A DNA stretch of 62,935 nt, filler included, from Rhabdomonas costata (lineage: Eukaryota), in the NCBI GenBank assembly GCA_019059605.1. It is 51 parts of 51 records of this genome, joined end to end, with 100 filler letters (N's around TTAATTAATTAA, not from the genome) between each part and the next. Parts side by side here need not be neighbours in the genome. Positions count along the whole stretch, not along the records: positions 1 to 1,136 come from JAHMHO010026813.1; 50 more parts are not named here. One strand, written 5' to 3'. The notes beneath the pieces were generated by a model, which saw nothing but the letters and a program-made list of their open reading frames with translations, was not told where the DNA came from and searched no databases. The stretch's first letter is position 1. The number at the start of each line of letters is the position of its first letter. Position numbers and translations under genes: made by a program. Below are positions 1 through 51,817 of the stretch, in pieces.

Positions 1-47
1 TGTGTTACGTGTGTTTGGGGGTTGTGTGGGAATAAAGTAATTTTAGT

Positions 48-286
48 ATGTCCTCCACAATGCAGGATAAAACTAAAAAATATTATAGTTCGTTAATATA
101 AGGTGGGAGCACTGCACACTTTGTGATAAAGCTTTTAACTTATTTAAGAATGAACAAATTGTATGTGAGTACTGTAAAAACAATTTTTGTAGTCCTGAAT
201 GCGTTAATAATCATCTATGCAGAGAATGCACAGACCATCTCGTTGATATGTGCAAAGTGTTTTTGTTTTTAATGAGACAAAAATAA
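48..286 (+). pseudogene. Frameshifted small Cys-rich (CxxC) protein, virus-like
   Basis: The frame of 101 reads WEHCTLCDKAF...VCEYCKNNFCSPECVNNHLCRECTDH...RQK* (TAA 284-286). ATG 48 is in another frame and a TAG lies at 86-88 in the Cys-rich frame. Confidence 0.5.
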
Positions 287-325
287 ACATTCAAATATAT
301 AAAATAAAAATATATAATTATTATA

Positions 326-647
326 ATGGAAATTTATGATAAAAATTCAAATTGCCTTAACATATGAATTTAAAAGGGAGCAAAAAAAAAGAATGATTGA
401 TAAGGAACTGTATTATCAAAAATTTACTGTAAAAATTGAGGACATTTGAACAGATCAAGACATTGAAGATTATGTTCATCAATTGAACCGTGATATTGCA
501 TATGATGCAATGCGACGAATTAACAACACAAACTTTAAAGCGAAAGAGTTTATTAAGGACAAATAACAGAAGACAGAGCAAATAACAGGCGTTTCTATGG
601 GTATTTGTAAATGTTCATATGAATTTATCCAACAAGTTGAAGCTTAA
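326..647 (+). pseudogene. Disrupted small AT-rich viral-type gene
   Basis: ATG 326 follows AAAATAAAAATATATAATTATTATA. Removing one A from the 341-345 run gives MEIYDKIQIALTYEFKREQKKRMIDKELYY..., with in-frame TGA 447 and TAA 564 and final TAA 645-647. Confidence 0.55.
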
Positions 648-681
648 AAAATTAAAATAAAAAATATTGTATTATTATATA

Positions 682-944
682 ATGTTAGTAATTCATTGCC
701 CAGACTGTAACAAATGCTGCAACATAAACGACAGCTTTATTGCACAACATGTAAAGTAAGATACTGTTTTCATTGTACATCGGTCTATATGATCGATAAT
801 AAAGAATTTAAAATATTTTCAGATAAACATGCATCAGAAGATAGCCAAATAATCGGTTATAATTATAGACGACCTCCAACATCTGATTCAGTGAGAAGAT
901 TTGAACAATATGAGCGTGAATACACCGTTTTAAAAGAAAATTGA
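682..944 (+). pseudogene. Frameshifted zinc-finger-like small protein, virus-like
   Basis: MLVIHCPDCNKCCNINDSF from ATG 682 joins YCTTCKVRYCFHCTS...KEN* through a 1-nt shift near 735. Upstream motif is the same AT-rich ...TATAATG type as the 326 gene. Confidence 0.6.
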
Positions 945-1013
945 AGCGTTAATGAGCAGATTTATAAAAAAGTTTGATGATCTGAATAATTTATAAAATG
1001 TAATATCAAATAT

Positions 1014-1136
1014 TTATAATTTAATTTTTCAACAACCATTACAACAGTTAGTACAGTTAGTACATTTATTCATTAGGGTATAGCTATAAGGTTCTCGCGA
1101 TATGTAAGTTGTGTCTTTAACTCGTTTATCACACAA
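1014..1136 (-). pseudogene. 3' end of a convergent Cys-rich small gene
   Basis: Reads LCDKRVKDTTYISREPYSYTLMNKCTNCTNCCNGC*KIKL*; truncated by the contig end. Confidence 0.35.
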
Positions 1137-8651: not shown

Positions 8652-9787
8652 GCCCGGTCGTAGATAACTTTTCCCTCCTTGAACGTTCTCACTATCTGGA
8701 TTTCGCTGATTTGGTCGGGTGCGACATTGAGGGGATTCCGGTCAAGCATAACAAGGTCAGCCAACTTTCCGATCTCCAGGCTGCCTTTAGTCTTCTCCTC
8801 TTTAAGCTCGTGCGCGGCGTGGATGGTCACTGCCTTCAGAGCGTCGTAGACTGACACCCGCTGGTCAGGCCCGATGACACGGCCGGAGCGAGTGGTGCGG
8901 TTTACTCCAGCACTGACCAAGAGCATACTGGACGGAGTGGCAGAGATTGGCGCATCGTGGTTGAAGGTGAAGGGCAAGCCTCTCGACACAAGCCACTGGA
9001 TTGGCATGGCATCCCTGGCTCGGTCCTCGCCCCACAGATTCACTGCAGTGTCCCCACCTGAAACAAGGCTTGGAGTGGTGAATGATGGGATCCCGCGAAG
9101 TTTCCCCAGCTCATCCACCTGGTCCGCTCTGAGACAGGACGCATGGGCGAACACAGGGCGATGGTCCCACATTCCATGCTTCTTTATCACCTTGTGGAAG
9201 GCCTTCAAGGCCTGGTCGGCGGCCGCATCCCCATTTATGTTCAGATGAATCTGGAGATTGCTCGTCCAGAACTGCTCAAAGCCCCGGTCCAGAACCTCAT
9301 CAGAGATTTGTTGGACTCCAGAGTACTCACCCTCCTGCCCTGTGGGGTTGTGCGCATAGGGTTGGGTCATCCACGCATTTTCAAGGCACCCGTCAAGCCA
9401 GAACTTCACACCCCCTAGTCTGACGCGATTGATGTACCTCTTGTCCAGGTCAGGGTGAAGGGCAAGCAGCCTACGGGAGGTGGCACTTGCCCCAGAGTCG
9501 ACCGCCTGTGTCGCTGTTTCTGCAACCGCGCAGACATACAAGTCCAGGGGAAGGAGGTTTTTGTTGATTGCATTCACCACAATGTCCACATCCTCCGCAT
9601 CGAGCCCCATCCCGCACTCCATGGCAGTGGTGTGTCCATGACTTGTCCACAGGTGACTGCTTTGCTGAACTACACGGTCAGCCAACGCTCCTGCGAATGG
9701 CGGCCGCTTAGCTTGGACAATGCTGAGCGCCGATTGCTCCATTGGCCCGGTGAGCGTTTTGGTATCAGGGCCACGAGCAAACCACAC
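8652..9787 (-). CDS. Amidohydrolase-3 / YtcJ-like metal-dependent hydrolase (partial, intronless)
   Basis: Open across the whole contig; motifs GVKFWLDG, NGDAAAD, DHRPVFAH, HDAP, ALKAVTIHAA, KGSLEIGKLADLVMLDRNPL, TFKEGKVIY. Confidence 0.92.
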
Positions 9788-28433: not shown

Positions 28434-29435
28434 TGTGGTTTGTGTTACAATCATTGAACCAGCATATGTATCATTTATATTATCTGGTACAGCATTTCTT
28501 TCAATTACTACCCATAAATCATTTTTGATCTTGTGTGAATGGAAAAATATTATTCACATTTATCATTATTGTATCACATAATATTGTATTGTTGCCATTT
28601 TCAGCTATTGTTATTGATTTAGATATTATGTTTGTCGTTGTATCTTGTGCTGGCGCATCAGATGCATTTAAAAATACTGATTTCCCGAATACTGTAAAAT
28701 TATAATATATCTGCAATTCAATATTTCCACTTGTTGCATTATCTACCATGTAATATATCGTCGCTTTTATTGGAAAAGATATATCAAGATCATATGGTAA
28801 TGTAAAATTTGTTACTCCTTTATGTGCTCCACCACTTACAAATTTATTGTTCTTTTTTGCTATACTTACTTTTATTTTTACTTTTCTTATCTATAAATAC
28901 TTCTTGATTTACAGCTGCACAATTTGATGGTTCTATATCAACAAGACTTAATGGTATGTAACCAACTGGTCTTGATTTACCGTAGTATTCAACAAATCCA
29001 TCATGATTTACTCTACAATTATTTGTATGTATTTTCACATATTTAGCTTTAGGTATATTTGATAATTGTTCCATGTATCCTCTTCTAAATTGTTATTTGT
29101 TAAACAAATCGTATTTACATAATCATATTTTCCTTCACCAATAGATAATGTTACTGGTTGTACTGCATTTCCAAGACGTACATCTCCTAAAATAGCATGG
29201 TAGGTTTTTAAATCTTTATAAATAGTTGAACATAAACTAAAATTTACACCGTTTGGATTATTTATTTTTATCATCTAAATCACATGCTGTTGTATTTAAA
29301 TGAGCGTCTGTTGCCAATATATATCATAATTATGTGATGAAGTTATATTTGCACTATTTGCATTGAATGTTGATTTCGATCCCGTTGGTCCTACAACTAA
29401 TGTATTATCATTGTCTTCTGTTTGGAAATTATTTT
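28434..29435 (-). pseudogene. Multiply frameshifted large AT-rich gene resembling giant-virus virion/fibre-type proteins
   Basis: Protein-like text continues across at least five frame changes: NNFQTEDNDNTLVVGPTG / LATDAHLNTTACDL / IKINNPNGV...GEGKYDYVNTICLTNNNLEEDTW / KIHTNNCRVNHDGFVEYYGKSRP / KFVSGG...FTLPYDLDISFPI / LWVVIERNAVPDNINDTYAGSM. Confidence 0.65.
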
Positions 29436-30292
29436 GTGCTGTCTCGCAAAGAGACGTTGCTTCACGGTAAGCACGCAGAGCTTCAACGTAAGAGGCGTTC
29501 GCACTATCTCTTTCACCTGTGAAGTCAGCTCCTCGTTGCGAGACAGCACAAAATAATTTCCAACAAAACNNNNNNNNNNNNNNNNNNNNNNNNNNNNNNN
29601 NNNNNNNNNNNNNTTAATTAATTAANNNNNNNNNNNNNNNNNNNNNNNNNNNNNNNNNNNNNNNNNNNNGGTTGTGGTGAGGGATGGCAAGCCCCGCCTT
29701 GAAAAGAATGATCCGCCGCTTGCGGCGCCAAGGCCGTAAGGGGAAATGCAAAAGATTATGTCCTTGGCATTGGCAGAGTCTTCGACTGTCAGTGGTCTTT
29801 TTTGAAATAGAACTCCCTGCCAGAGTGTATATTCCTCCTGACTTGAAGTCAACCTGAGGGGGGTGCGGTTTTTCCCTTCATAGTTCTTTCAACTTGGGTT
29901 TTACGTCACAGATTTGTCTCCGTGCTCTTTCTGGGGCAGCCGGACCTACAGTGCAGCTCTCCGGAACACGTCAGGACTTTCGGTTCTGCCGCCCTGGAGG
30001 TCCAACCCCAACCCAACTAACAATTACGGCATATCCCTGTTAACGCGGGTGTGTTGGGTCTGGTTTGAATGCTGATCCTCTACTGCTTTCGTTTAGCCGT
30101 TTACCCGCTAGCGCATCTCCTCTGCCACCAATACACTGCTCTTCTTCCATTGTCCTCCCACGGCATCGCCTCCCGGCTCATTCGATTGGTATTGTCGCTG
30201 TGTGCCTATCCGTCCTTTCTTCCCAAAACAAGCCGCGTTCCCTTGCGTGTCAACCATACTTTTCTTTCACCGTGTGGCCTTTCCGCCCTCAG

Positions 30293-32422: not shown

Positions 32423-33843
32423 CTGCCCAAAAAGGTTAGGTTGGAAACGAGATGCGATTGTTGAGTGCAATAGAAAATTGGGGAAGTGGGTTATGGTTCC
32501 ACTGGTATTGGTTCCCAACGGTGACGAAAACGGACCACAATTCCTGTTGGTATTTCAACTTGACAAAGATCGCATAACTGACGCGAGAGCCTGAGAAATG
32601 ATTTTTGTTGCTGCTACCAAGGGTAGTTAGCTAGTCCAAGTGTTCGTCGAAACGTCTGCTTGCTAACTAACGTCAAAACTGAAGCTGGCTAAGAGCAAAG
32701 CTGTAGGACAGCATTAGTTTAGCGGTGGCTGGGGGGGGGGTATTAGAGACTTTCATTGTTTCAATATGAAAAGTGGTAACAATACTTACGGTTCACAGTG
32801 GCAACCGTTCACCCCCCACCAACAACAACAACTTAGGCTGCAACAACGACTGTTGTGACTGTGAAGGGTGCCTGAATACTCTGAAAGTCCTTCTCGCATA
32901 GAAAAGAGATGGTCTCGATGAGAGTGCCTAGAATAGCAGAGGCTTCACTGTGAAAGACTTTGGAGAGTCTGTTCTCCGTTAACTCATGACGGTTATTTCG
33001 CCCCCGGTGGCCCTTAGACTGGTTGCCGCTCGCTTGCAGACGCGAGCTTTCAGCGAATTTGTGTGCAGCGATGTGAAACCCTGTATCTTTCACGCGTCAT
33101 CGTCCTCCGCCACCTTTCAGAACAACAAATGCACGCAGTAATCTGGAACGCTCGGTGATAAAACCCGTTAAAAGTCCTCTTCCAAAAGTGACATCAAAGG
33201 ATCCCGTGCCACACAGAACGCTCTACAAAACCGGGGAAAAACGGATTCAGAAGCGAAAAGACAAACCCAACACACANNNNNNNNNNNNNNNNNNNNNNNN
33301 NNNNNNNNNNNNNNNNNNNNTTAATTAATTAANNNNNNNNNNNNNNNNNNNNNNNNNNNNNNNNNNNNNNNNNNNNGTGGTTTGTTGATGAGACCATACA
33401 GACCTATTAAAAATGGTCGGAGAGAAAAAAGAGCTGATATCGTGTGTATACAGAATTGTTTTGAAATTACTACTTATATTAAGACCAGGAAGACCTCCTA
33501 AAATGTTCGGAGAGATAGAGAGAGCGGCTATGATCTGTTCGCAGTTTTTTTTGAATGTGCGGCATGGTATGGATATATATATATAAATAATAATATAAAT
33601 AATAATATAAATATATTTATAAATTTAATATAAATATTACATATACGTAGTAGTAGTATATATACGTAGTAGTAGTATAGTAATATGTGAGCACCGTCCC
33701 ATTTTTACGAAGCCTGCGGCTTCTTCAAACTGGGACGTTGCGCACATATTACGTTCACTTTCAATCGCCGCCGCGCCGCCACCATTAGACTATCTGTTTG
33801 AGAGAGAGCCGCTAAACTGACTGTTCTGTACAAGTTAAATATT

Positions 33844-33931
33844 ACCCAGCCCATCCATAATATCCAGCACATAATACCACCCAGTCCATCCATAATATCC
33901 AGCACATAATACCACCCAGTCCAGCCATAAT
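33844..33931. repeat. 35-bp tandem repeat x about 2.5
   Basis: Unit ACCCAG(C/T)CCATCCATAATATCCAGCACATAATACC starting at 33844, 33879 and 33914. Confidence 0.92.
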
Positions 33932-34016
33932 CTATAGTGCATACTAGGGTATTTTTGTATAATTTATTAAAAAAATTATATAATAATTATATAAATGGAA
34001 CCATTAGAAGTGTGGA

Positions 34017-34290
34017 TATATATAAATAATAATTATAATATATAATTATAATATATAATTATAATATATAATTATAATATATATTAAAAATAAAATTTTT
34101 TTAATAAAAATTATTATATATATAATTATAATATATAATTAATTATTATATTAATTATAATTATATAATTATAATTATATTTAATAATTAATAATTATAT
34201 TTTTAATTATATTTAATAATTAATATATAATTATAATTATATTAATTATTAACTATATAATTATATAATTAATTATATATATAATTTATA
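34017..34290. repeat. Near-pure A/T low-complexity tract
   Basis: About 270 nt of TATAAT/TAATTA variants with almost no G or C. Confidence 0.95.
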
Positions 34291-35585
34291 TGAATATTTA
34301 CATGTACGAAAAAATGTCAAATTAATGAATATTTTTTAGCATGATAAATTGTCAAAGTAATGAATATTTAATATTGAATTCGCGAAAAAAACAATATGAA
34401 TATTTCGCGGATTAAATTTTAGTGTGAAAAAGTAAAAAACTTAGGTAGTGCGACCAGGCCGGCCATTACGTCGAAGACGTAATACTATGTTGTAGCATGT
34501 CTAATATGCAAANNNNNNNNNNNNNNNNNNNNNNNNNNNNNNNNNNNNNNNNNNNNTTAATTAATTAANNNNNNNNNNNNNNNNNNNNNNNNNNNNNNNN
34601 NNNNNNNNNNNNGGTTGTGTGGCGGTCTTTCTGTGCCCTGTGCCCGATGCACTTTCAGTTTTTGGCATTCAATCTTTTATTTCGTCATTTGGTTCCAGAA
34701 CATCGGAGCATTCCGCGGCGCGGGCACTGCTGATCAATGAAAGATGTAGTTTGTATGGATTGCAGCGCGGCATTTTTCCCGTTTTTACGAAGTGCGCGCT
34801 TCCTGTGCGCAGAGCGTGTCCCCCGTCTCGCGGACCGACCCCAACTTGAGCCCTGGGGCACGATCGTGTGTTGTTTTACTGCTGTGTCTCTCTCTTTCTC
34901 AGTTGGGAAAGCTCAGGACTGTGGAAGGATTGTCGGACGACAAAACAGTTTGCAACAGAAAACGTAAGGTCAACTAAGTGACAGGGGGATGAGCGTGAGA
35001 AGAGGCCGTGTGAAGGGTTTGGAAAGAGTGAACGTGAACAGCATGGGAATGAACGAGAGCGAGGGAATCGGCGTGCGGAGGGATGGCGAAAGGACGGGAA
35101 AGAGAATGAAGAGGAAGAGGGAGCAACGGCTGTGACGAAGTGTGAACGGTCAAAAATTGGAAGGAAGAGGGATGATGCTACGGGATGTCGATTCGCACAG
35201 AGTTCCTGGGTATGACGGCGAAATCTAAGAGGGAGGGAGAGAGGGAGGGAAGAGGGGGGATTGAGTTCTATGCAGCTCTTGCTGGTTGCCGTCCCCATTG
35301 CTGTGTGCCTGTCTATTTTGTCATCTTTGGACTCGCCTGGTTTTACCCAGCTCGCCAAGTTCGGAAGAGGACGACTGCCTGTGAGACACTTCTCCAATTG
35401 ACCCCCCCCCCCATGCTGTTCCCTGGAATTATTTAACTGTGTTTCTCCCACTCAGGGAAGCCCGCAAGCTTTCGCCTCGCTCGTACAAAACTATGCTGGA
35501 AAGGCTAGCATCGGTGCCTTGTTCTCTCCTCCTTCTCTTCCTCTATTCTCCTTCCTTTGTGCTGGTACTCGTTTTGCAGTGGGCA

Positions 35586-44100: not shown

Positions 44101-45765
44101 TTGTGGAGCTCAGAAACTGTGTTTGGAGACTGATTCATACCATATCAAAGAAAACGTGGGCGTCAGAGGCGGTTAAATGCCTGCTGGTGATGGCGTGATG
44201 CTGTTTTTCCGCACAGATGCATATATTTTGTGAAATACGTAGTTACACCACATGGCAGGTGAACGTGTGGCATCATCAATTTTTGCCTCTCATGAATATG
44301 AGAATGCTTCTACTAAAAGCTTGCGCAGTTTGACCTTCCTACAGTCAATATGTAAGCTAACATTTCTTGAAAGCAAGGCATATGCTCCGCCTTTTGTTAT
44401 NNNNNNNNNNNNNNNNNNNNNNNNNNNNNNNNNNNNNNNNNNNNTTAATTAATTAANNNNNNNNNNNNNNNNNNNNNNNNNNNNNNNNNNNNNNNNNNNN
44501 TTGTTGTTTGGGGACGTAGCTGACCAATCCGGTTGATTAATGTCCAGATAATTCTTGATGATCGAAAAATCGGCAGAATGTAGGCAACCGCTTAACTGGA
44601 TAAAACTGCACGTTGAGGCGCCAACATATGTAGCCAACTGTCTTCTTGTGGATCAATTGATTAGGCCATCAAATCAAACCTGATTAAGCCATCAAAGTGG
44701 GCGCTGTTTTCCCCTCAGGGTTAAGTGATTTGCCGCTCATATGCGCCACTTCACGGCCAATTAATGGTATCAATTCCGTCTGGATGGTGCCTTTTGCGGC
44801 AATTCCAGCCGAAAAATAGCCCACGTGTTGGTGGACTGAGCAGGTTTTATGGCAAAATGGCGTGATATTTGCCAATAAATGTCGGGACAAGACCTTTCGG
44901 AGGCAGTTCCTGAGGACAATTGCTCACAGGATGTGCTGAATGCACTTTTCTTGTACCAGATTTGCTCTCAGGACCATCAGGCTCTGAAAAAATACCGCAC
45001 GATGAAAGCACCCAGAATGTCCAAATCCTTACCTGGACCATCATGTCTGTGCTGCTCATCCTCATCTAGAAATGCAGTCTGCTTTCTCGTATAAGAATAT
45101 TGTTTTCATCATGGTTTGTTGCCAAGGGGGTGGAGGGACACCTCGGGCGAGGCAACTCCGAAGCCCGAGTTCACCACACACCTCAACAGGGTGGCCTACA
45201 GCTTGAAATCTTAGGCCCGCAGCAGCATCCAAGAAGCCACAGGTAGCGGCGCCACGGCCACACAAACAATCAGGAGCCATCTGGGTGTGGCTGGTGGCCA
45301 AACGGGGCACTATCTGCCCAAGACAAACTCAGCAGCGTACACAAAAAGGATCACATTTAAACCTGAAAAATATTTTTGTAAAAGTTTAGTGTCGTAAAGC
45401 CACTCCTTCCCAATCCGGTTCGAACGACGTTATCTATGTCAAGAACTATGAATGTTGTGGATGTCAAGAACTGGCTACCGTGATGGCTGTTTCGCACAGA
45501 AATACGGAAACAAAGACCGAGTGATTAGGACCGCTGCCGCAAATCCTTATCAAGAATAAAATCCACACAGCTTTGCCAAACGGATGAAGCCGCTCTTCAA
45601 TCCAGGCTGCCGCTGAGGAGCACATTGCAAACAAACANNNNNNNNNNNNNNNNNNNNNNNNNNNNNNNNNNNNNNNNNNNNTTAATTAATTAANNNNNNN
45701 NNNNNNNNNNNNNNNNNNNNNNNNNNNNNNNNNNNNNGGGGTGTGTTTGGGGGTGTGTGGGTGGG

Positions 45766-46538
45766 CTGCAGGCCCGGGCGAGGGCGATGAGGGAGCTGTT
45801 TTCGCACTTCAGCTCGCTTGTGGTGCTGTTCTCGGCGGCCTCGGAGGTTCCGGCGTTCCGGCTGGCCACGTTCTCGCTTCTGGTGGTGGTGCCCCCGGCC
45901 ACCCCGAGCGCTGGCCTGAGGAGAAGGCCGCGCTGACGGAGCTACTCCCCGCGGCGCCCGAGAACATGCGGTTGGTGGGCTTTGTGGCGATGGATGAGCT
46001 GCAGAAGGCGGAGGAGTTCTTTGGCTTCCCGATGCTCCCGAAGCCTCCGACGGTGTCCCAGATGCAGGAGTTCCTGGAGCACGCCCGGGGCGAGACTTCA
46101 GAGGTCGTCTCGGTTTCGGCGACCTCTGGTGTCGGGGTTTCGGATCCGTCCTCGAGTTCCTCCTCGCGTCCTCCCCGGCGAGTTCTTGTTGCCGAGGACA
46201 TCATGCTGAACCGGATGATGTTTGTGCAGATGCTGAAGCACTGGAACGTCGACGCGGACACCGCAGAGAACGGGCTTGTGGCGGTGTCGATGTGCACGAG
46301 CCAGGAGTACGACGCGGTGTTCATGGACGCGCACATGCCGTTGTGCGACGGGGTGGAGGCGACTCGTCGGATTCGGCAGTTGGCGGGGTACCGCCACGTG
46401 CCGATCATTGCGCTTACGGCGGCGACGGCGGAGGAGCACCGCGCGGCGTACCGAGAGTGCGGGATGAGCCACTTTCTGGGGGAGCCTGTGACGCTGAGCT
46501 CGCTGCGGGCGGTTCTGGAGCAAGCCTCGGTGCTGTAA
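45766..46538 (+). CDS. C-terminus of a hybrid two-component sensor with receiver domain; apparent frameshift near 45893
   Basis: RVLVAEDIMLNRM...AENGLVAV...YDAVFMDAHMPLCDGVEATRRIR...VPIIALTA...GMSHFLGEPV, preceded by a pseudo-receiver ending LPKPPTVSQMQEFL. Confidence 0.9.
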
Positions 46539-47764
46539 TGAGCGTTTGGCGCGTCGAGAATTCGTATGCTGGGTGAAGTAGTATTTCCTGGGCAGTTTAA
46601 CATGATGGTGTGTTGGGATTGAGATTTGTGGGCGCCCCTTGTTTAGTCTTTGCAAGGGGGAGAGAGGGGGGAGAAGTTCACGTTGCAGCGACTTTCGGGT
46701 TTGTTTTCGGTTAAGAATGTTTATTAGGTGAGCAGTTGAGAAGGTAGGTTTTAAAAGGATATTGTTTTCCTGGGGTGCTGCGAAGTGAGCGATTGGGAAG
46801 CCAACGCTGTCGCAGCAGGATACAGCTTGTTGTGATCTGTGCTTGTTTCTGGTTTTTGACTGGGACAGAGAGANNNNNNNNNNNNNNNNNNNNNNNNNNN
46901 NNNNNNNNNNNNNNNNNTTAATTAATTAANNNNNNNNNNNNNNNNNNNNNNNNNNNNNNNNNNNNNNNNNNNNGGGGTGGTGGGGGCGATGCAGTTTGAG
47001 ATATGCCTGCAAATTAAGCACTTGGGAACGATTCCCTATCTCCAGAATAAGAGCGCTCTGTGGACTGATTCAGTTCTCGCTTGCTGTAGGCTTGGTGTGT
47101 GCATTTCTCAGATGCAACTGCTACCCCAGATTTCAGACTCTGTGGTCAGCCGCCTCTCCCGGTGTGCCCCTGCCTTTGCTAACAGTGCCAGATTCGTTTT
47201 GTTTTCTTTTTCTTCGCGGTTTTAACCCAGAGCATACATTACATTATTGTGATGCAACCGGTAATCGACGTGTTAATTTGCCTTGCAATGTGGCGGAAAT
47301 CGGTAATCGAGCGGGCGCGAACATGGCGGAAATCGGCAGTCGCGAAATCAATCGATTAGTGAGCAGTAATCAGCGACTGTGGGTAACACAACCCCTGGTG
47401 TTGGACAAGAGTGGAAACTTTCGCCGACCACCCACTTTAGTTCAATGATAGGCGTTTTGACTGACCCATGGTAAGTATGCGGTAATTGAATGCAGACGGA
47501 ATATTCCCAGATCGTCGTCGACTTTGCGTTGCACCCTCGGGTTTTTATTTGTTACCCAGGGTTGGCCGTTTTGAAACGCGTTTTTATATTTCAAACGGTT
47601 TAAAGCAATTGAAAACATGGAGGTAACCGGGGCCCGCTTCAGTTCGACGCACTGTGAGCCAGGGGGCCGTCTGGACTTTTCCGGTGTGACTTTTCCTGCT
47701 TCTGGCGGGGACACCAGTCGGCCGACATGGGCGGGGATATGAGCAGGTTTTTTTACATACGTAG

Positions 47765-49445: not shown

Positions 49446-49772
49446 TTTTTGTTGTTCATATATAAAATACATGAGTATTGTATATATGAACAACATAAAG
49501 CAATAAAATACGTTTATACATATGGTAAACTTTTACAATTAATTAGCGAATTTAAAAAAAGTCATACTATAGAAAAAAAAGTAAATATAATTATATATAT
49601 ACTAAATGTGATTACTGAAAATAATGGAGTATTTTTGCATGAAAATACAAATTTAGAAAATGTTTTAAGTAAGAAAATAAAAGAATTTATAGTAGATGAT
49701 TACACAGGTAAAATAAAAAAATATATTAAAAATAATTTTTTTCTCAACAAATATATGAATAAAAGTTTTTAA
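49446..49772 (+). CDS. 3' part of AT-rich hypothetical protein, giant-virus-like
   Basis: Intronless K/N/I/Y-rich open frame of over 100 codons in very AT-rich DNA. Confidence 0.7.
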   Translation, partial: FLLFIYKIHEYCIYEQHKAIKYVYTYGKLLQLISEFKKSHTIEKKVNIIIYILNVITENNGVFLHENTNLENVLSKKIKEFIVDDYTGKIKKYIKNNFFLNKYMNKSF

Positions 49773-50004
49773 ATATGTTATATAAATAAGAATTTAATAA
49801 ATGAAATATTTATTTCCACATCTCCGATGTTCTTGTACAATATCATATACAATAAATAGGTAATTTATTAATTAAATTTAAAAGATAATTCATTTAACAT
49901 GATATAATTGTTTATTTATATTCTTTTTATAAAAGAATGTAAATAAAATTAAATATCCATTGTATATATTTTTACTATGAAATAAAATTTATTATAGTAA
50001 ATAT

Positions 50005-50581
50005 ATGCATAATTACTACTACAAATACAAAAAATATCAATTAAAATATAATAAATTATATAATGAACTTATTGGTGGTTACTATGGATATATAGCAACA
50101 ACAAATGGAAATTTTGAACTGGTAAAAAATCCCGAACTTGTAAAAAATCCCGAAGATCCACCCAAAAAATCACTTATAAGACGACTAATAAATTTAATAA
50201 AACCAAAAAAAAAATCTAGTAGTTATGATGTATCTTCTGATGTATATATATGTAAAGAAAATGAACAAATATGTACATTTACAGCTGGTGAAAAAACATT
50301 TATGGATAATGTATTACAAGTTGTAATGCCAAGGATTTTTAATTCTTTATATGGTATGAAATTCACAGAAGTATCAAATTTTGAGTATTTAAATAAAGGA
50401 TCTTATAGTCTTATATATGTATATAATAACAGTAAAATAATTCGTATTGTTCGTAAAGCCAACAAATTATTACATGTACGTGAATTTACAGTAACATGTT
50501 ATATTAAAAAATGGTTGAAAACAGATAAATCACCACATATATATTATTATGATTTTATATTTACCTATTCACAACCAACAC
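50005..50581 (+). CDS. Giant-virus-like protein with N-terminal YKYKKYxLKY...GG motif and start of a kinase-like fold (partial)
   Basis: MHNYYYKYKKYQLKYNKLYNELIGG, an ELVKNP duplication, then YLNKGSYSLIYVYNNSKIIRIV...HVREF resembling kinase subdomains I-III; AT-rich ...ATATATG start. Confidence 0.78.
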
Positions 50582-51218
50582 NNNNNNNNNNNNNNNNNNN
50601 NNNNNNNNNNNNNNNNNNNNNNNNNTTAATTAATTAANNNNNNNNNNNNNNNNNNNNNNNNNNNNNNNNNNNNNNNNNNNNGGGGTTGGGTGTGTTGGGT
50701 GTGCTTGCCCCTGTTGAATACATCCCTTCATCACCATTCTGTCGCACGTACACACATACCCTTCCCATTACATACACTCGTTTTGGTTTCGGCTCTCCTC
50801 CTTCCTCGCCTTTCATTTTTCATCAGATGCCCACCAGTTGACACCACTGTCCCGTTGGCACCGTAATAATTGTGTGCATCCGCTCCCCAGTACCCCTCAC
50901 TGTTGCAGCGTGCCAGAACTTGATCCTGTTTGCCGGCATTTTTTTTTTGTGCCAATTGCTCCTCGTTCCCTCATCAAAGTGTTCTCTGGATAAGTCAGTT
51001 CAACAGATCCATGCCACAGTGGACGAATTGCTCTTTTGGTGCACGCGGTTGCCCAAAGACACCTTGGCTGGTTTGAGGTGATTTGACTATAATCATTGTC
51101 CTTACCGCTCGTGGCGGATCGCAAACCGTTTCGTGACTCCATTTTTTGCCTCCAAGGAATCACGGCTTTCCCTTTCCTCATTACCCGTTACTCACGCGAT
51201 TCCCGAGATTCACAGCCA

Positions 51219-51817
51219 ATGACTTGCACGATCATCAAAGTCCTCGCTCTGTTGCTGCTGAGAAGCTCCTTGCCTCACCTCGGGGTCGCCGCCGGCGTGC
51301 TGCAGGGCTCGGGCTCCACCATGGTCGCCCCTCTGGAGCAGCAGCTGGCGTTCGCCTTCCCTTGGTTCAAAGTGAGCTATACGGGCACGGGCAGTGGTGC
51401 GGGCAAGGCGGCGGTGGCCAGCGGAGACGCCGACTTCGCATGCTCGGAGTCCAGCCTGTCCAGCTCCGAGCAGGCCAGCACGGCGGACATCGTGCAGCTG
51501 CCTCTGTTCGTGATTGGGGTTGCGGTGATCTACAACATCCCTGGGATGACCATCAGCAGCCCCCCGCTGAACCTCACCGCGGAGCTTCTGGTGGGGATCT
51601 ACGCGGAGCGTGTGACACAATGGAACGACCCTCGGATCGTGGCGCTGAATCCAGCGATTGCTGGGCAGCTTCCGAGCATGCCGATCACTCGGTTTGTTCG
51701 GCAGGACTCGAGCGGCACGACCAGCGTGTTCACCAGCGCCCTGAAGGCGTTCAGCTCGAACGGGTACGTGGGCTCGGACTCCACGATGCAATACAGCCTG
51801 CCCCCTGCCCAAACCCC
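51219..51817 (+). CDS. Secreted PstS-like phosphate-binding (PBP2) domain protein (partial)
   Basis: Signal peptide, then LQGSGST, YTGTGSGAGK, DFACSE, QLP, IYNIPG, GIY...WNDPRIVALNP, RQDSSGTTSVFT. Confidence 0.92.

Follow-up and report, generated by a model that had tools for sequence, protein, structure and literature searches.

The window analysed here is a 62,935-nt stretch made of 51 blocks of 1134-1142 bp each with N/TTAATTAATTAA linkers between them, and its positions 1-1136 are one whole, separate short contig and no part of a chromosome. The best explanation of this contig is three small head-to-tail genes and, converging on them, the 3′ end of a fourth, and the ORF pieces of such an arrangement are present on the strands on which they had been predicted. 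The features are as follows.

1-30, plus strand: G/T-rich tail, probably derived from an amplification primer rather than from the source genome
48-101, plus strand: N-terminal piece of gene 1, 17 codons, from ATG 48 to TAA 99-101
89-286, plus strand: Cys-rich frame of gene 1, 65 aa, with no ATG of its own and ending at TAA 284-286
287-325, plus strand: spacer 1, almost pure A/T, with the originally predicted motif at 301-325
326-367, plus strand: short frame of 13 codons, from the motif-adjacent ATG 326 to TGA 365-367
336-647, plus strand: long frame of gene 2, from ATG 336, with in-frame TGA 447-449 and TAA 564-566 and a final TAA 645-647
648-681, plus strand: spacer 2, A/T-rich, with the originally predicted motif at 654-681
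682-759, plus strand: N-terminal piece of gene 3, including CPDC, from the motif-adjacent ATG 682 to TAA 757-759
711-944, plus strand: main frame of gene 3, 77 aa, open from 711, with ATG 714 and TGA 942-944
945-1028, no strand assigned: A/T-rich spacer, flanked by the 3′ ends of the convergent genes 3 and 4
1029-1129, minus strand: gene 4, 3′ end only, with stop TGA 1031-1029 and a start beyond the contig
1130-1136, plus strand: A/C-only tail, probably derived from an amplification primer

Counted over all six frames, CxxC motifs number 18, against 1.2 expected from mononucleotide shuffles and 2.6 from Markov-1 shuffles, and none of the 2000 shuffles of each type reached 18. The Cys-rich frame of gene 1 has 9 Cys in the layout C-x2-C-x13-C-x2-C-x4-C-x3-C-x5-C-x2-C, and the main frame of gene 3 holds CTTC and CFHC as C-x2-C-x4-C-x2-C. 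The original prediction described three of the four genes as Cys-rich; in gene 4 the Cys run falls on a 9-nt tandem repeat (1044-1068) that partly makes it, and its first Cys is inside the primer-like tail. Genes 1 and 3 are predicted to encode short Cys-pair modules of zinc-binding type, in cross-brace or treble-clef style and loosely FYVE-like and IBR/B-box-like, respectively, and such modules might act as small protein-binding adaptors. The gene 2 product is charged and probably helical, and it has no recognisable family match. Its frame carries an excess of G at the first codon position (P=0.0016 for the whole frame) that persists after the first in-frame stop (P=0.002 for 450-644); genes 1, 3 and 4 show no significant periodicity. 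A further point for coding is the stop count by plus-strand phase, 17, 30 and 47. ORF lengths are not above chance, since the longest ORF has 85 aa and P(max≥85) is 0.13-0.24 against shuffles; that ORF lies antisense to gene 2.

The intergenic spacers between the head-to-tail genes are 34-42 nt long and A/T-only. Two starts had been described as following near-identical motifs; the strings are exact (301-328 at ATG 326 and 654-684 at ATG 682), but the likeness is marginal, with P=0.038 against shuffles and 0.07 against other AT-rich windows. Each gene may be transcribed from a short A/T-rich promoter directly before its ATG, an arrangement found in cytoplasmic DNA viruses. The generic AAAAT is found in both spacers, and is expected by chance in DNA this rich in A and T. 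No promoter motif known from NCLDVs lies in the spacers: AAAATTGA is absent from them, its sole two copies (432-439 and 937-944) both lying inside coding frames, and TAAATG stands at none of the gene starts, with copies at 608 (plus strand) and 1063 (minus strand) only. Spacer 945-1028 forms no hairpin to speak of (fold z-score +0.76, with 157 of 200 shuffles folding at least as well), and hairpin signals of Mimivirus type are absent between the genes (fold z-scores +0.76, +1.02 and -0.93). A search of the DNA for RNA genes gave 0 Rfam matches and 0 tRNAs.

Homology searches returned little. No ORF of the contig matched a Pfam family at its cut-off. Gene 1 gave weak Pfam matches below the cut-offs (FYVE_2, E=0.03; FYVE, E=0.08) and weak alignments to rabphilin-3A (E=0.015) and ZAR1 (E=0.017), and gene 3 likewise gave IBR_1 (E=0.0049) and B-box (E=0.027) below the cut-offs. 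In bits, the FYVE comparison (PF01363 and PF02318) scored 13.5 and 14.9 against cut-offs of 27.8 and 27.2, and gene 3 scored 17.2 against 27 for IBR (PF22191) and 15.1 against 24.1 for B-box (PF00643); an IBR/B-box-type query from gene 3 found no match in PDB at E≤10. PHROGs, NCBIfam and PDB held nothing at or near cut-off. Genes 3, 1 and 2 (the stops of gene 2 read as X) had no match in a word-index search of 5.8 billion proteins, and these large-database searches needed shared exact 5-residue words and so pass over relatives below ~50% identity. Viral contigs of IMG/VR type held no relative of gene 3 or gene 1, one search giving a 12-residue match only, and no relatives of the contig's ORFs were found in metagenome contigs, in prokaryote genomes (one per species, 185,579 species) or in 50,697 phage records. 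Single-sequence AlphaFold models were poor, with pLDDT of 64.8 for gene 1 and 44.2 for gene 3.

The ends of the contigs bear on how any of them should be read. A G/T-only start of at least 6 nt occurs in 38 of the 51 contigs of the window, against 0 of 51 for the opposite-composition control, and an A/C-only end of at least 6 nt occurs in 36 of 51, the contig at 1-1136 having 7 nt of A/C. At least one such primer-like tail is present on 49 of 51 contigs (opposite-composition control 0 of 51), and therefore each contig looks like a single amplicon. Non-self-complementary primers for whole-genome amplification are G/T-only. The use of non-self-complementary primers in whole-genome amplification is described in a review (PMC9102663). 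Bases 9-30 are 95% identical to the beginning of contig 45738, and the only repeats common to 1-1136 and the rest of the window are low-complexity A/T and the primer tail. As a practical caution, the contig ends probably carry primer-derived sequence. Bacterial-type domains, PBP_like_2 and Response_reg among them, are encoded on some contigs of the window. As a chain of unrelated amplicon contigs from a mixed sample, the window gives no meaning to adjacency.

The contig at 1-1136 is foreign in composition to the main ~52% GC, intron-bearing eukaryote of the assembly. Its GC content is 27-28% (0.283), against ~52% for most of the window, and it lies 0.166 from the host pool in dinucleotide distance, where the maximum among 43 host-like contigs is 0.161. 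There are four AT-rich contigs in the window with at least three different dinucleotide signatures among them, and one of the four is a near match to 1-1136, at a distance of 0.059.

28434-29569, minus strand: probable sister contig, 30.5% GC, with orphan ORFs that are small, packed and on one strand

The two contigs probably share one source genome. Searches of viral contigs and protein families gave no relatives for the ORFs of the sister contig. By frame tracking its coding frame changes twice, and the change at 28850-28890 falls in runs of 4-6 A. One end of it carries a 32-nt fold-back repeat (29422-29453 and 29532-29563, 97% complementary) that directly adjoins the primer tail and is a typical amplification chimera. 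Another AT-rich contig, 49446-50581, lies at a signature distance of 0.205 from 1-1136 and probably does not come from the same source; an exhaustive HMMER search of 1.84 billion proteins with its 200-aa ORF gave 0 matches, and since the contig is probably of other origin this result has no bearing on 1-1136.

The frames had each been described as damaged. The in-frame stops of gene 2, TGA 447 and TAA 564, are where they were predicted to be. Of three proposed 1-nt slips, two are optional and the third, near 90, is needed only to supply the zinc-finger frame of gene 1 with an ATG; the change from the ATG 48 frame must then fall within 89-98. The slip near 343 is unneeded, as the long frame of gene 2 already includes ATG 336. 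The 13-codon frame at 326-367 matters only on the assumption that gene 2 truly starts at ATG 326. The slip near 735, for which the possible window is 711-756, is optional in that ATG 714 opens a frame of 76 aa, and it is plausible because the out-of-frame CPDC sits at IBR-like spacing. A further internal stop had been proposed at TGA 1031. Nothing coding-like lies beyond this codon, and it is therefore most simply, and probably, gene 4's own stop.

It had also been argued that the stops are each one transition from CGA/TGG or CAA, which is uninformative, being true by definition of every TGA and TAA. Two substitution-made stops in gene 2 would arise by error with P=0.004 at 0.5% per site and 0.014 at 1%, and two in 101 codons become likely only at a per-site error of 2-5%. 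Ordinary error rates are thus unlikely to have made them, and real mutations are favoured; on the other side stand the single amplicon-like sequence of the contig and the fold-back chimera of its sister. Overall, we hold it possible, short of an even chance, that the frame breaks are real inactivating mutations; that they are amplification or consensus artefacts, or that they reflect a wrong gene model or non-standard decoding, we regard as two somewhat unlikely explanations of equal standing. Sequence alone cannot separate real decay from artefact in these breaks, and broken frames in 1-kb single-amplicon contigs are, without reads, not readable as pseudogenisation. Tiny spliceosomal introns (18-25 nt, GT-AG) were rejected by eye, with no pair of the needed length spanning TGA 447, TAA 564 or 89-98.

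Based on the tails, the composition and the near match to 28434-29569, we tentatively favour, at less than even confidence, a stand-alone amplicon-type piece of an unsampled compact AT-rich replicon, with 28434-29569 as its probable sister. Such a replicon would have been in the sample alongside the main organism. Our best guess as to its kind, and the single most likely one, is a large DNA virus or virus-like element. A viral origin of 1-1136 is itself a guess to which only the architecture speaks, in the fit of small head-to-tail genes with 34-42-nt A/T-only spacers. No NCLDV core, hallmark or homologous protein was matched by searches that miss distant relatives, and a stretch of 1.1 kb from a genuine giant virus would often be hallmark-free. 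On a hallmark-free piece of this length, a virus is not distinguishable from an AT-rich protist, a microsporidian, a plasmid or an odd bacterium. A kinetoplast minicircle, at ~1 kb and AT-rich, was also considered. Kinetoplast minicircles have a conserved 12-mer replication block, and this candidate was rejected on finding no such block in 1-1136 at up to 2 mismatches; the whole window has 7 matches against 5.3 expected.

That the source genes are intact and every break is an artefact of single-molecule PCR-type amplification and low-coverage consensus is possible, though on the unlikely side. In its favour are the single-amplicon nature of each contig, the 97% fold-back repeat beside the primer tail of the sister, its frame change in runs of 4-6 A and the fact that two of the three proposed slips are not required; on a post hoc comparison, the middle third of the respective clones takes in both stops (447 and 564) as well as the windows 711-756, 478-532 and 680-720. 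However, the two stops in 101 codons would need the 2-5% per-site error given above, homopolymers in the slip window 89-98 are no longer than 2, and other contigs hold long unbroken Pfam-aligned frames of 372, 112 and 155 residues.

The fuller claim that 1-1136 and 28434-29569 belong to an undescribed AT-rich large DNA virus, or to an endogenous remnant of one, associated with the eukaryote of the assembly and with zinc-finger genes that are genuinely inactivated, is unlikely in our estimate. If true, it would show an encounter between virus and host in the course of decay, and should the AT-rich contigs come from an unknown virus of this eukaryote or from a remnant of such a virus, the assembly would contain a new virus-host pair.

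A source in an AT-rich cellular organism (a protist, a microsporidian or an endosymbiont), or in its plasmid or phage, and not in a eukaryotic virus, is a distinctly unlikely alternative. The mixed window with its several AT-rich signatures and the bacterial-type domains on other contigs (PBP_like_2, Response_reg) speak for it, and the missing homologues are equally compatible with an unsampled cellular lineage. However, spacers of 34-42 nt and genes of 65-100 aa are unusually compact for a eukaryote, and for a prokaryotic source the expression signals are wanting: no Shine-Dalgarno-like sequence precedes the ATGs, sigma-70-like sites on 1-1136 are not enriched (4 against 8.6 expected), and terminator-like sites number 0. 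Together with the absence of matches in prokaryote genomes and phages, these counts of promoter-like and terminator-like sites led us to reject a bacterial or phage operon; NCBIfam had no match either.

The original prediction saw a giant-virus piece that had entered the host genome, been silenced and was decaying neutrally, its stops possibly made by deamination of methylated cytosines, and we consider this improbable. Small packed genes with A/T-rich spacers are as it would have them, as are two in-frame stops within a frame that keeps its codon periodicity, stops that errors of 0.5-1% per site would seldom produce (P=0.004-0.014), and a slip window at 89-98 with no long homopolymer; moreover, an amidohydrolase frame of 378 codons runs unbroken through another contig of this pipeline. 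The methylation step is contradicted by the composition, since CpG is not depleted (observed/expected 0.93, 19 against 20.4, where host-like contigs have a median of 0.80), and TG (1.31) and CA (1.33) are raised without any CpG loss. RIP-like mutation was rejected as well, the dinucleotide signature being the opposite, with TpA under-represented and CpA/TpG over-represented. Nor does the contig contain host sequence or a junction with host DNA, its two ends being the primer-like tails at 1-30 and 1130-1136. The viral contig searches yielded no viral homologue, and the transition argument, holding for every TGA or TAA, lends no help.

It is very improbable that the "stops" are sense codons under a different decoding, whether TGA as Trp (code 4), TAA/TAG as Gln (ciliate) or TGA as Cys with frameshifting (Euplotes). 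The in-frame TGA and TAA do sit in a frame with continuing periodicity, gene 2 would be lesion-free if TGA were read as a residue and TAA 564 were the true stop, TAA 564 has the context AAA-TAA, and phase 0 has no TAG until 1074, but TAA is concentrated where the proposed genes end (270-324, 645, 708) rather than within genes, both gene 1 and the sister contig use TGG for Trp, and the data are far too few for establishing a code. The ciliate code was rejected on this clustering and on frame tracking in the sister contig, where first-position G follows frame 0 over 29074-28850 and not the frame that is open under the ciliate code. Euplotes-type +1 frameshifting at AAA-TAA was rejected as fitting the context of TAA 564 only, while the shift required in genes 1 and 3 is the opposite one (-1/+2).

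Returning to a piece of a compact AT-rich replicon, we compared it with known systems. The predicted modules of genes 1 and 3 share paired CxxC knuckles, compatible spacing and weak alignments with zinc fingers of FYVE/rabphilin type and IBR/B-box type. They differ from these in scoring 13.5-17.2 bits where curated cut-offs are 24-28, in having RWEHC in gene 1 in place of the basic motif of FYVE, and in the first knuckle of gene 3 lying in another frame. The basic motif of FYVE domains is R(R/K)HHCR. Draft-assembly artefacts offer the same primer-like tails (49 of 51), the fold-back repeat of the sister and the frame change in A-runs, whereas the substitution-type stops of gene 2, in a periodic frame, are not their usual product. 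With GEVE-like insertions in protist genomes the contig shares a block of foreign composition and broken small genes; unlike them, it is a free-standing amplicon and has no host junction, no CpG depletion and no virus-derived homology.

Compared with Nucleocytoviricota, the contig has no hallmark gene and no homologue in viral contigs of IMG/VR type, its copies of AAAATTGA are inside coding frames only, no TAAATG stands at its starts, and there is no intergenic hairpin signal. The ORFan regions of AT-rich Nucleocytoviricota (pox-, irido- and mimivirus-like) nevertheless have the same small head-to-tail genes with short A/T spacers and the same many small Cys-rich orphan proteins. AAAAT is described in a review as essential in an IIV-6 promoter (PMC5294985), and one spacer of the contig has TATATAAAAT, which equals the opening 10 bases of the proposed 13-base "MEGA-box", TATATAAAATTGA, given there (PMC5294985).

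The window is made up of 51 blocks of 1134-1142 bp each, separated by 100-base linkers (N, TTAATTAATTAA, N), and because positions 48-1136 fall in the first block (1-1136), contig 1, the AT-rich contig under study, is a complete, separate short contig. Non-self-complementary degenerate amplification primers are typically composed of G and T only. A G/T-only start of at least 6 bases (typically 10-13) was found in 38 of the 51 contigs and an A/C-only end of at least 6 bases in 36; a tail was present at one end or the other in 49 and at both ends in 25, and the opposite composition, used as a control, occurred at either end in 0 of 51. The G/T share of the first 15 bases was 77% across the 51 contigs, compared with 49% at an internal control position. 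These primer-like tails, G/T-only at the 5′ end or A/C-only at the 3′ end, measure ~10-13 nt and reach 28. They match the expectation that each contig is one product of amplification with primers of this kind, whose non-self-complementary design is described in a review (PMC9102663).

Features of contig 1, including genes 1-4, the small ORF sets of the original prediction
1-30, contig start: primer-like tail of G/T composition
48-99 (ATG to TAA), plus strand: gene 1, with an overlapping 65-aa frame open at 89-283 that carries 9 Cys in a regular layout
336-645 (ATG 336 to TAA 645), plus strand: gene 2, ORF reading, with in-frame TGA 447 and TAA 564
682-757 (ATG to TAA; CPDC), plus strand: gene 3, ORF reading, with a frame open at 711-941 (CTTC-x4-CFHC)
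Contig end to TGA 1031-1029, minus strand: gene 4, ORF reading
1130-1136, contig end: primer-like tail of A/C composition

Since contig 1 carries tails at both ends, its source DNA spans ~31-1129 and comes without flanking context; the gene 1 upstream region and the 5′ part of gene 4 are lost beyond the ends. Bases 9-30 are 95% identical to the start of contig 45738 (contigs are named by first position). The contigs are unrelated and proximity within the window is biologically meaningless. Their ends are not genomic sequence.

The GC content of contig 1 is 28.3%, compared with >47% in 43 of the 51 contigs, which derive from a eukaryote with introns and, perhaps, from some bacteria. Pfam matches in the latter include Diphthamide_syn, Peptidase_A22B, Amidohydro_3, Response_reg, PBP_like_2 and PEP_mutase, and a PDB search found a phosphodiesterase exon among them. 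By symmetrised dinucleotide signature, the distance of contig 1 from the pool of host-like contigs, those resembling the main organism, is 0.166; for individual host-like contigs the distance to the rest has a median of 0.072 and a maximum of 0.161 (n = 43). Contig 1 lies only 0.059 from its sister contig 28434-29569 (30.5% GC), and 0.205 and 0.382 from the remaining two AT-rich contigs. GC and dinucleotide distances together indicate a mixed sample, and contig 1 and its sister probably share a source other than the main organism.

Several other contigs were also distinctive. Contigs 8652-9787, 45738-46873 and 51093-51817 (57-60% GC) carry long unbroken frames: a 378-codon Amidohydro_3 frame that fills its whole contig, a receiver domain of the Response_reg family and a phosphate-binding-type domain of the PBP_like_2 family. 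These contigs may stem from bacteria in the sample and not from the eukaryote itself. Contig 49446-50581 (19.9% GC) has a 200-aa open frame (49981-50580) with a glycine-rich stretch that runs off the contig; exhaustive HMMER comparison with 1.84 billion representative proteins gave 0 matches at E ≤ 0.001, and Pfam, PHROGs, NCBIfam and PDB gave nothing. Its dinucleotide signature is unlike that of contig 1, and it probably comes from a different source. Long palindromic, low-complexity DNA of the TATAAT type makes up most of contig 33377-34512 (25% GC), which additionally contains three tandem copies of a 35-nt unit (33838-33942) and a GC-rich hairpin of 35 nt (33680-33752); the signature of this contig is unlike that of every other (0.44 to the host pool).

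We found that ORF length on contig 1 is uninformative: its longest ORF, of 85 aa, runs antisense to gene 2, and 13-24% of shuffles contain one at least as long. The six frames contain 18 CxxC motifs compared with 1.2-2.6 expected, a number that none of 2000 shuffles reached with either shuffling method. First-position G excess is typical of genes, and the gene 2 frame shows it (P = 0.0016), including in the 65 codons past its first stop (P = 0.002). We conclude that the CxxC number and the gene 2 G excess are real coding signals. Plus-strand stops number 17, 30 and 47 by phase; the periodicity of genes 1, 3 and 4 taken singly is not significant, and a 9-nt tandem repeat accounts for part of the gene 4 Cys run.

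The original prediction described four damaged genes, and its observations were borne out in part: both motif strings, the ORF pieces and every ATG and stop lie where claimed, and the in-frame TGA 447 and TAA 564 of gene 2 were left standing after recheck. Two of the three proposed 1-nt slips are not required. No slip is needed near 343, given that the long frame of gene 2 already has ATG 336. That near 735 is optional, as ATG 714 opens a 76-aa frame, although the CPDC knuckle, placed in the other frame but at the spacing that an IBR-like finger requires, makes a frame change between 711 and 756 plausible. Near 90, the zinc-finger frame of gene 1 lacks an ATG and could use ATG 48 only through a frame change at 89-98. 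TGA 1031, with A/T-rich sequence devoid of coding signal beyond it, is most simply gene 4's normal stop, and the remark that the stops are one transition from CGA/TGG or CAA is no evidence, being true by definition for any TGA or TAA.

Real lesions are our tentative reading of the frame breaks, at somewhat short of an even chance. In gene 2, 5.8% of all single-base changes create a stop. For two new stops to arise within 101 codons, P is 0.004 if the error per site is 0.5% and 0.014 if it is 1%; such a pair becomes likely only at 5-10%. The 10-base window 89-98 has no homopolymer (longest run two), and the 378-codon amidohydrolase frame is intact in a contig from the same pipeline. An artefact is possible but rather unlikely. 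Contig 1 is a single amplicon, and the sister contig, which has packed ORFs (79-123 aa, minus strand), contains an inverted repeat beside a primer-like tail (29422-29453 and 29532-29563; 32 nt, 97% complementary, arms 78 nt apart), typical of an amplification chimera. This is probably a fold-back chimera, so the ORF at that end begins with spurious residues. By first-position G the sister's coding frame also shifts twice, running 1, 0, 1, the second time within runs of 4-6 A (28850-28890). A wrong gene model or decoding we judge similarly doubtful: alternative decoding has little support, as TAA clusters at the ends of genes and TGG serves for Trp, and Euplotes-type shifting is opposed by frame changes in the wrong direction. 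Tiny introns across the breaks, judged by eye on the sequence, do not fit.

Methylation-driven deamination after host silencing, originally proposed as the cause of decay, is contradicted by contig 1, where CpG is not depleted (19 observed, 20.4 expected, ratio 0.93; host-like median 0.80); nor does any host junction lend it support. TpA is under-represented and CpA/TpG over-represented, skews opposite to a RIP-like process.

Relatives of the ORFs were sought in protein, profile, viral, metagenome, prokaryote and phage searches and none was found; the large searches need shared exact words or 8-residue patterns and therefore reach fairly close relatives only. Pfam gave sub-threshold zinc-finger hints (FYVE_2 0.03, FYVE 0.08, IBR_1 0.0049, B-box 0.027), and PDB gave rabphilin-3A (0.015) and ZAR1 (0.017) for gene 1 and no match for gene 3. 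PHROGs and NCBIfam held nothing meaningful, an exact-word-dependent search of 5.8 billion proteins returned no candidate for genes 1, 2 or 3, and viral, metagenome and prokaryote contig scans with phage records produced one trivial 12-residue match. The sister's ORFs are equally orphan, and AlphaFold models made without an alignment were unusable. None of the comparisons that could be made with NCLDV, FYVE, IBR/B-box, minicircle and bacterial operon placed contig 1 among them, so it should not be assigned to any of these groups.

Most likely, contig 1 is part of an unsampled replicon, compact and AT-rich, that accompanied the main organism in the sample, and it encodes very small proteins, two of them with paired Cys knuckles resembling cross-brace zinc fingers. 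The viral origin originally claimed is a guess; we tentatively favor a large DNA virus as the single most likely kind of source because of the tight head-to-tail packing, A/T-only spacers, absence of bacterial signals and orphan status. For now contig 1 is an orphan piece of an assembly that is mixed, amplified and highly fragmented, and its importance is low unless further contigs of the same source show what it belongs to.

If the source is such a virus, each ATG would have a short A/T-rich promoter directly upstream from which transcription starts, and the zinc modules may act as small binding adaptors. The shared upstream motif is real to the eye, with 27 of 33 positions aligning between spacers 284-325 and 648-681 (two gaps), but marginal statistically: 3.8% of composition-matched shuffles reach the alignment score, as do 7% of pairs drawn at random from other stretches of ≤15% GC. 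Contig 1 showed no hairpins marking gene ends, no enrichment of bacterial promoter or terminator patterns and no TAAATG at its starts. Two exact copies of AAAATTGA, the mimivirus early-promoter octamer, lie only within coding frames (432-439 and 937-944, the second overlapping the gene 3 stop codon), and the whole window has 7 copies compared with 4.5 expected. Among the NCLDV motifs compared, which are listed in a review (PMC5294985), AAAAT is present in both contig 1 spacers and TATATAAAAT in one.
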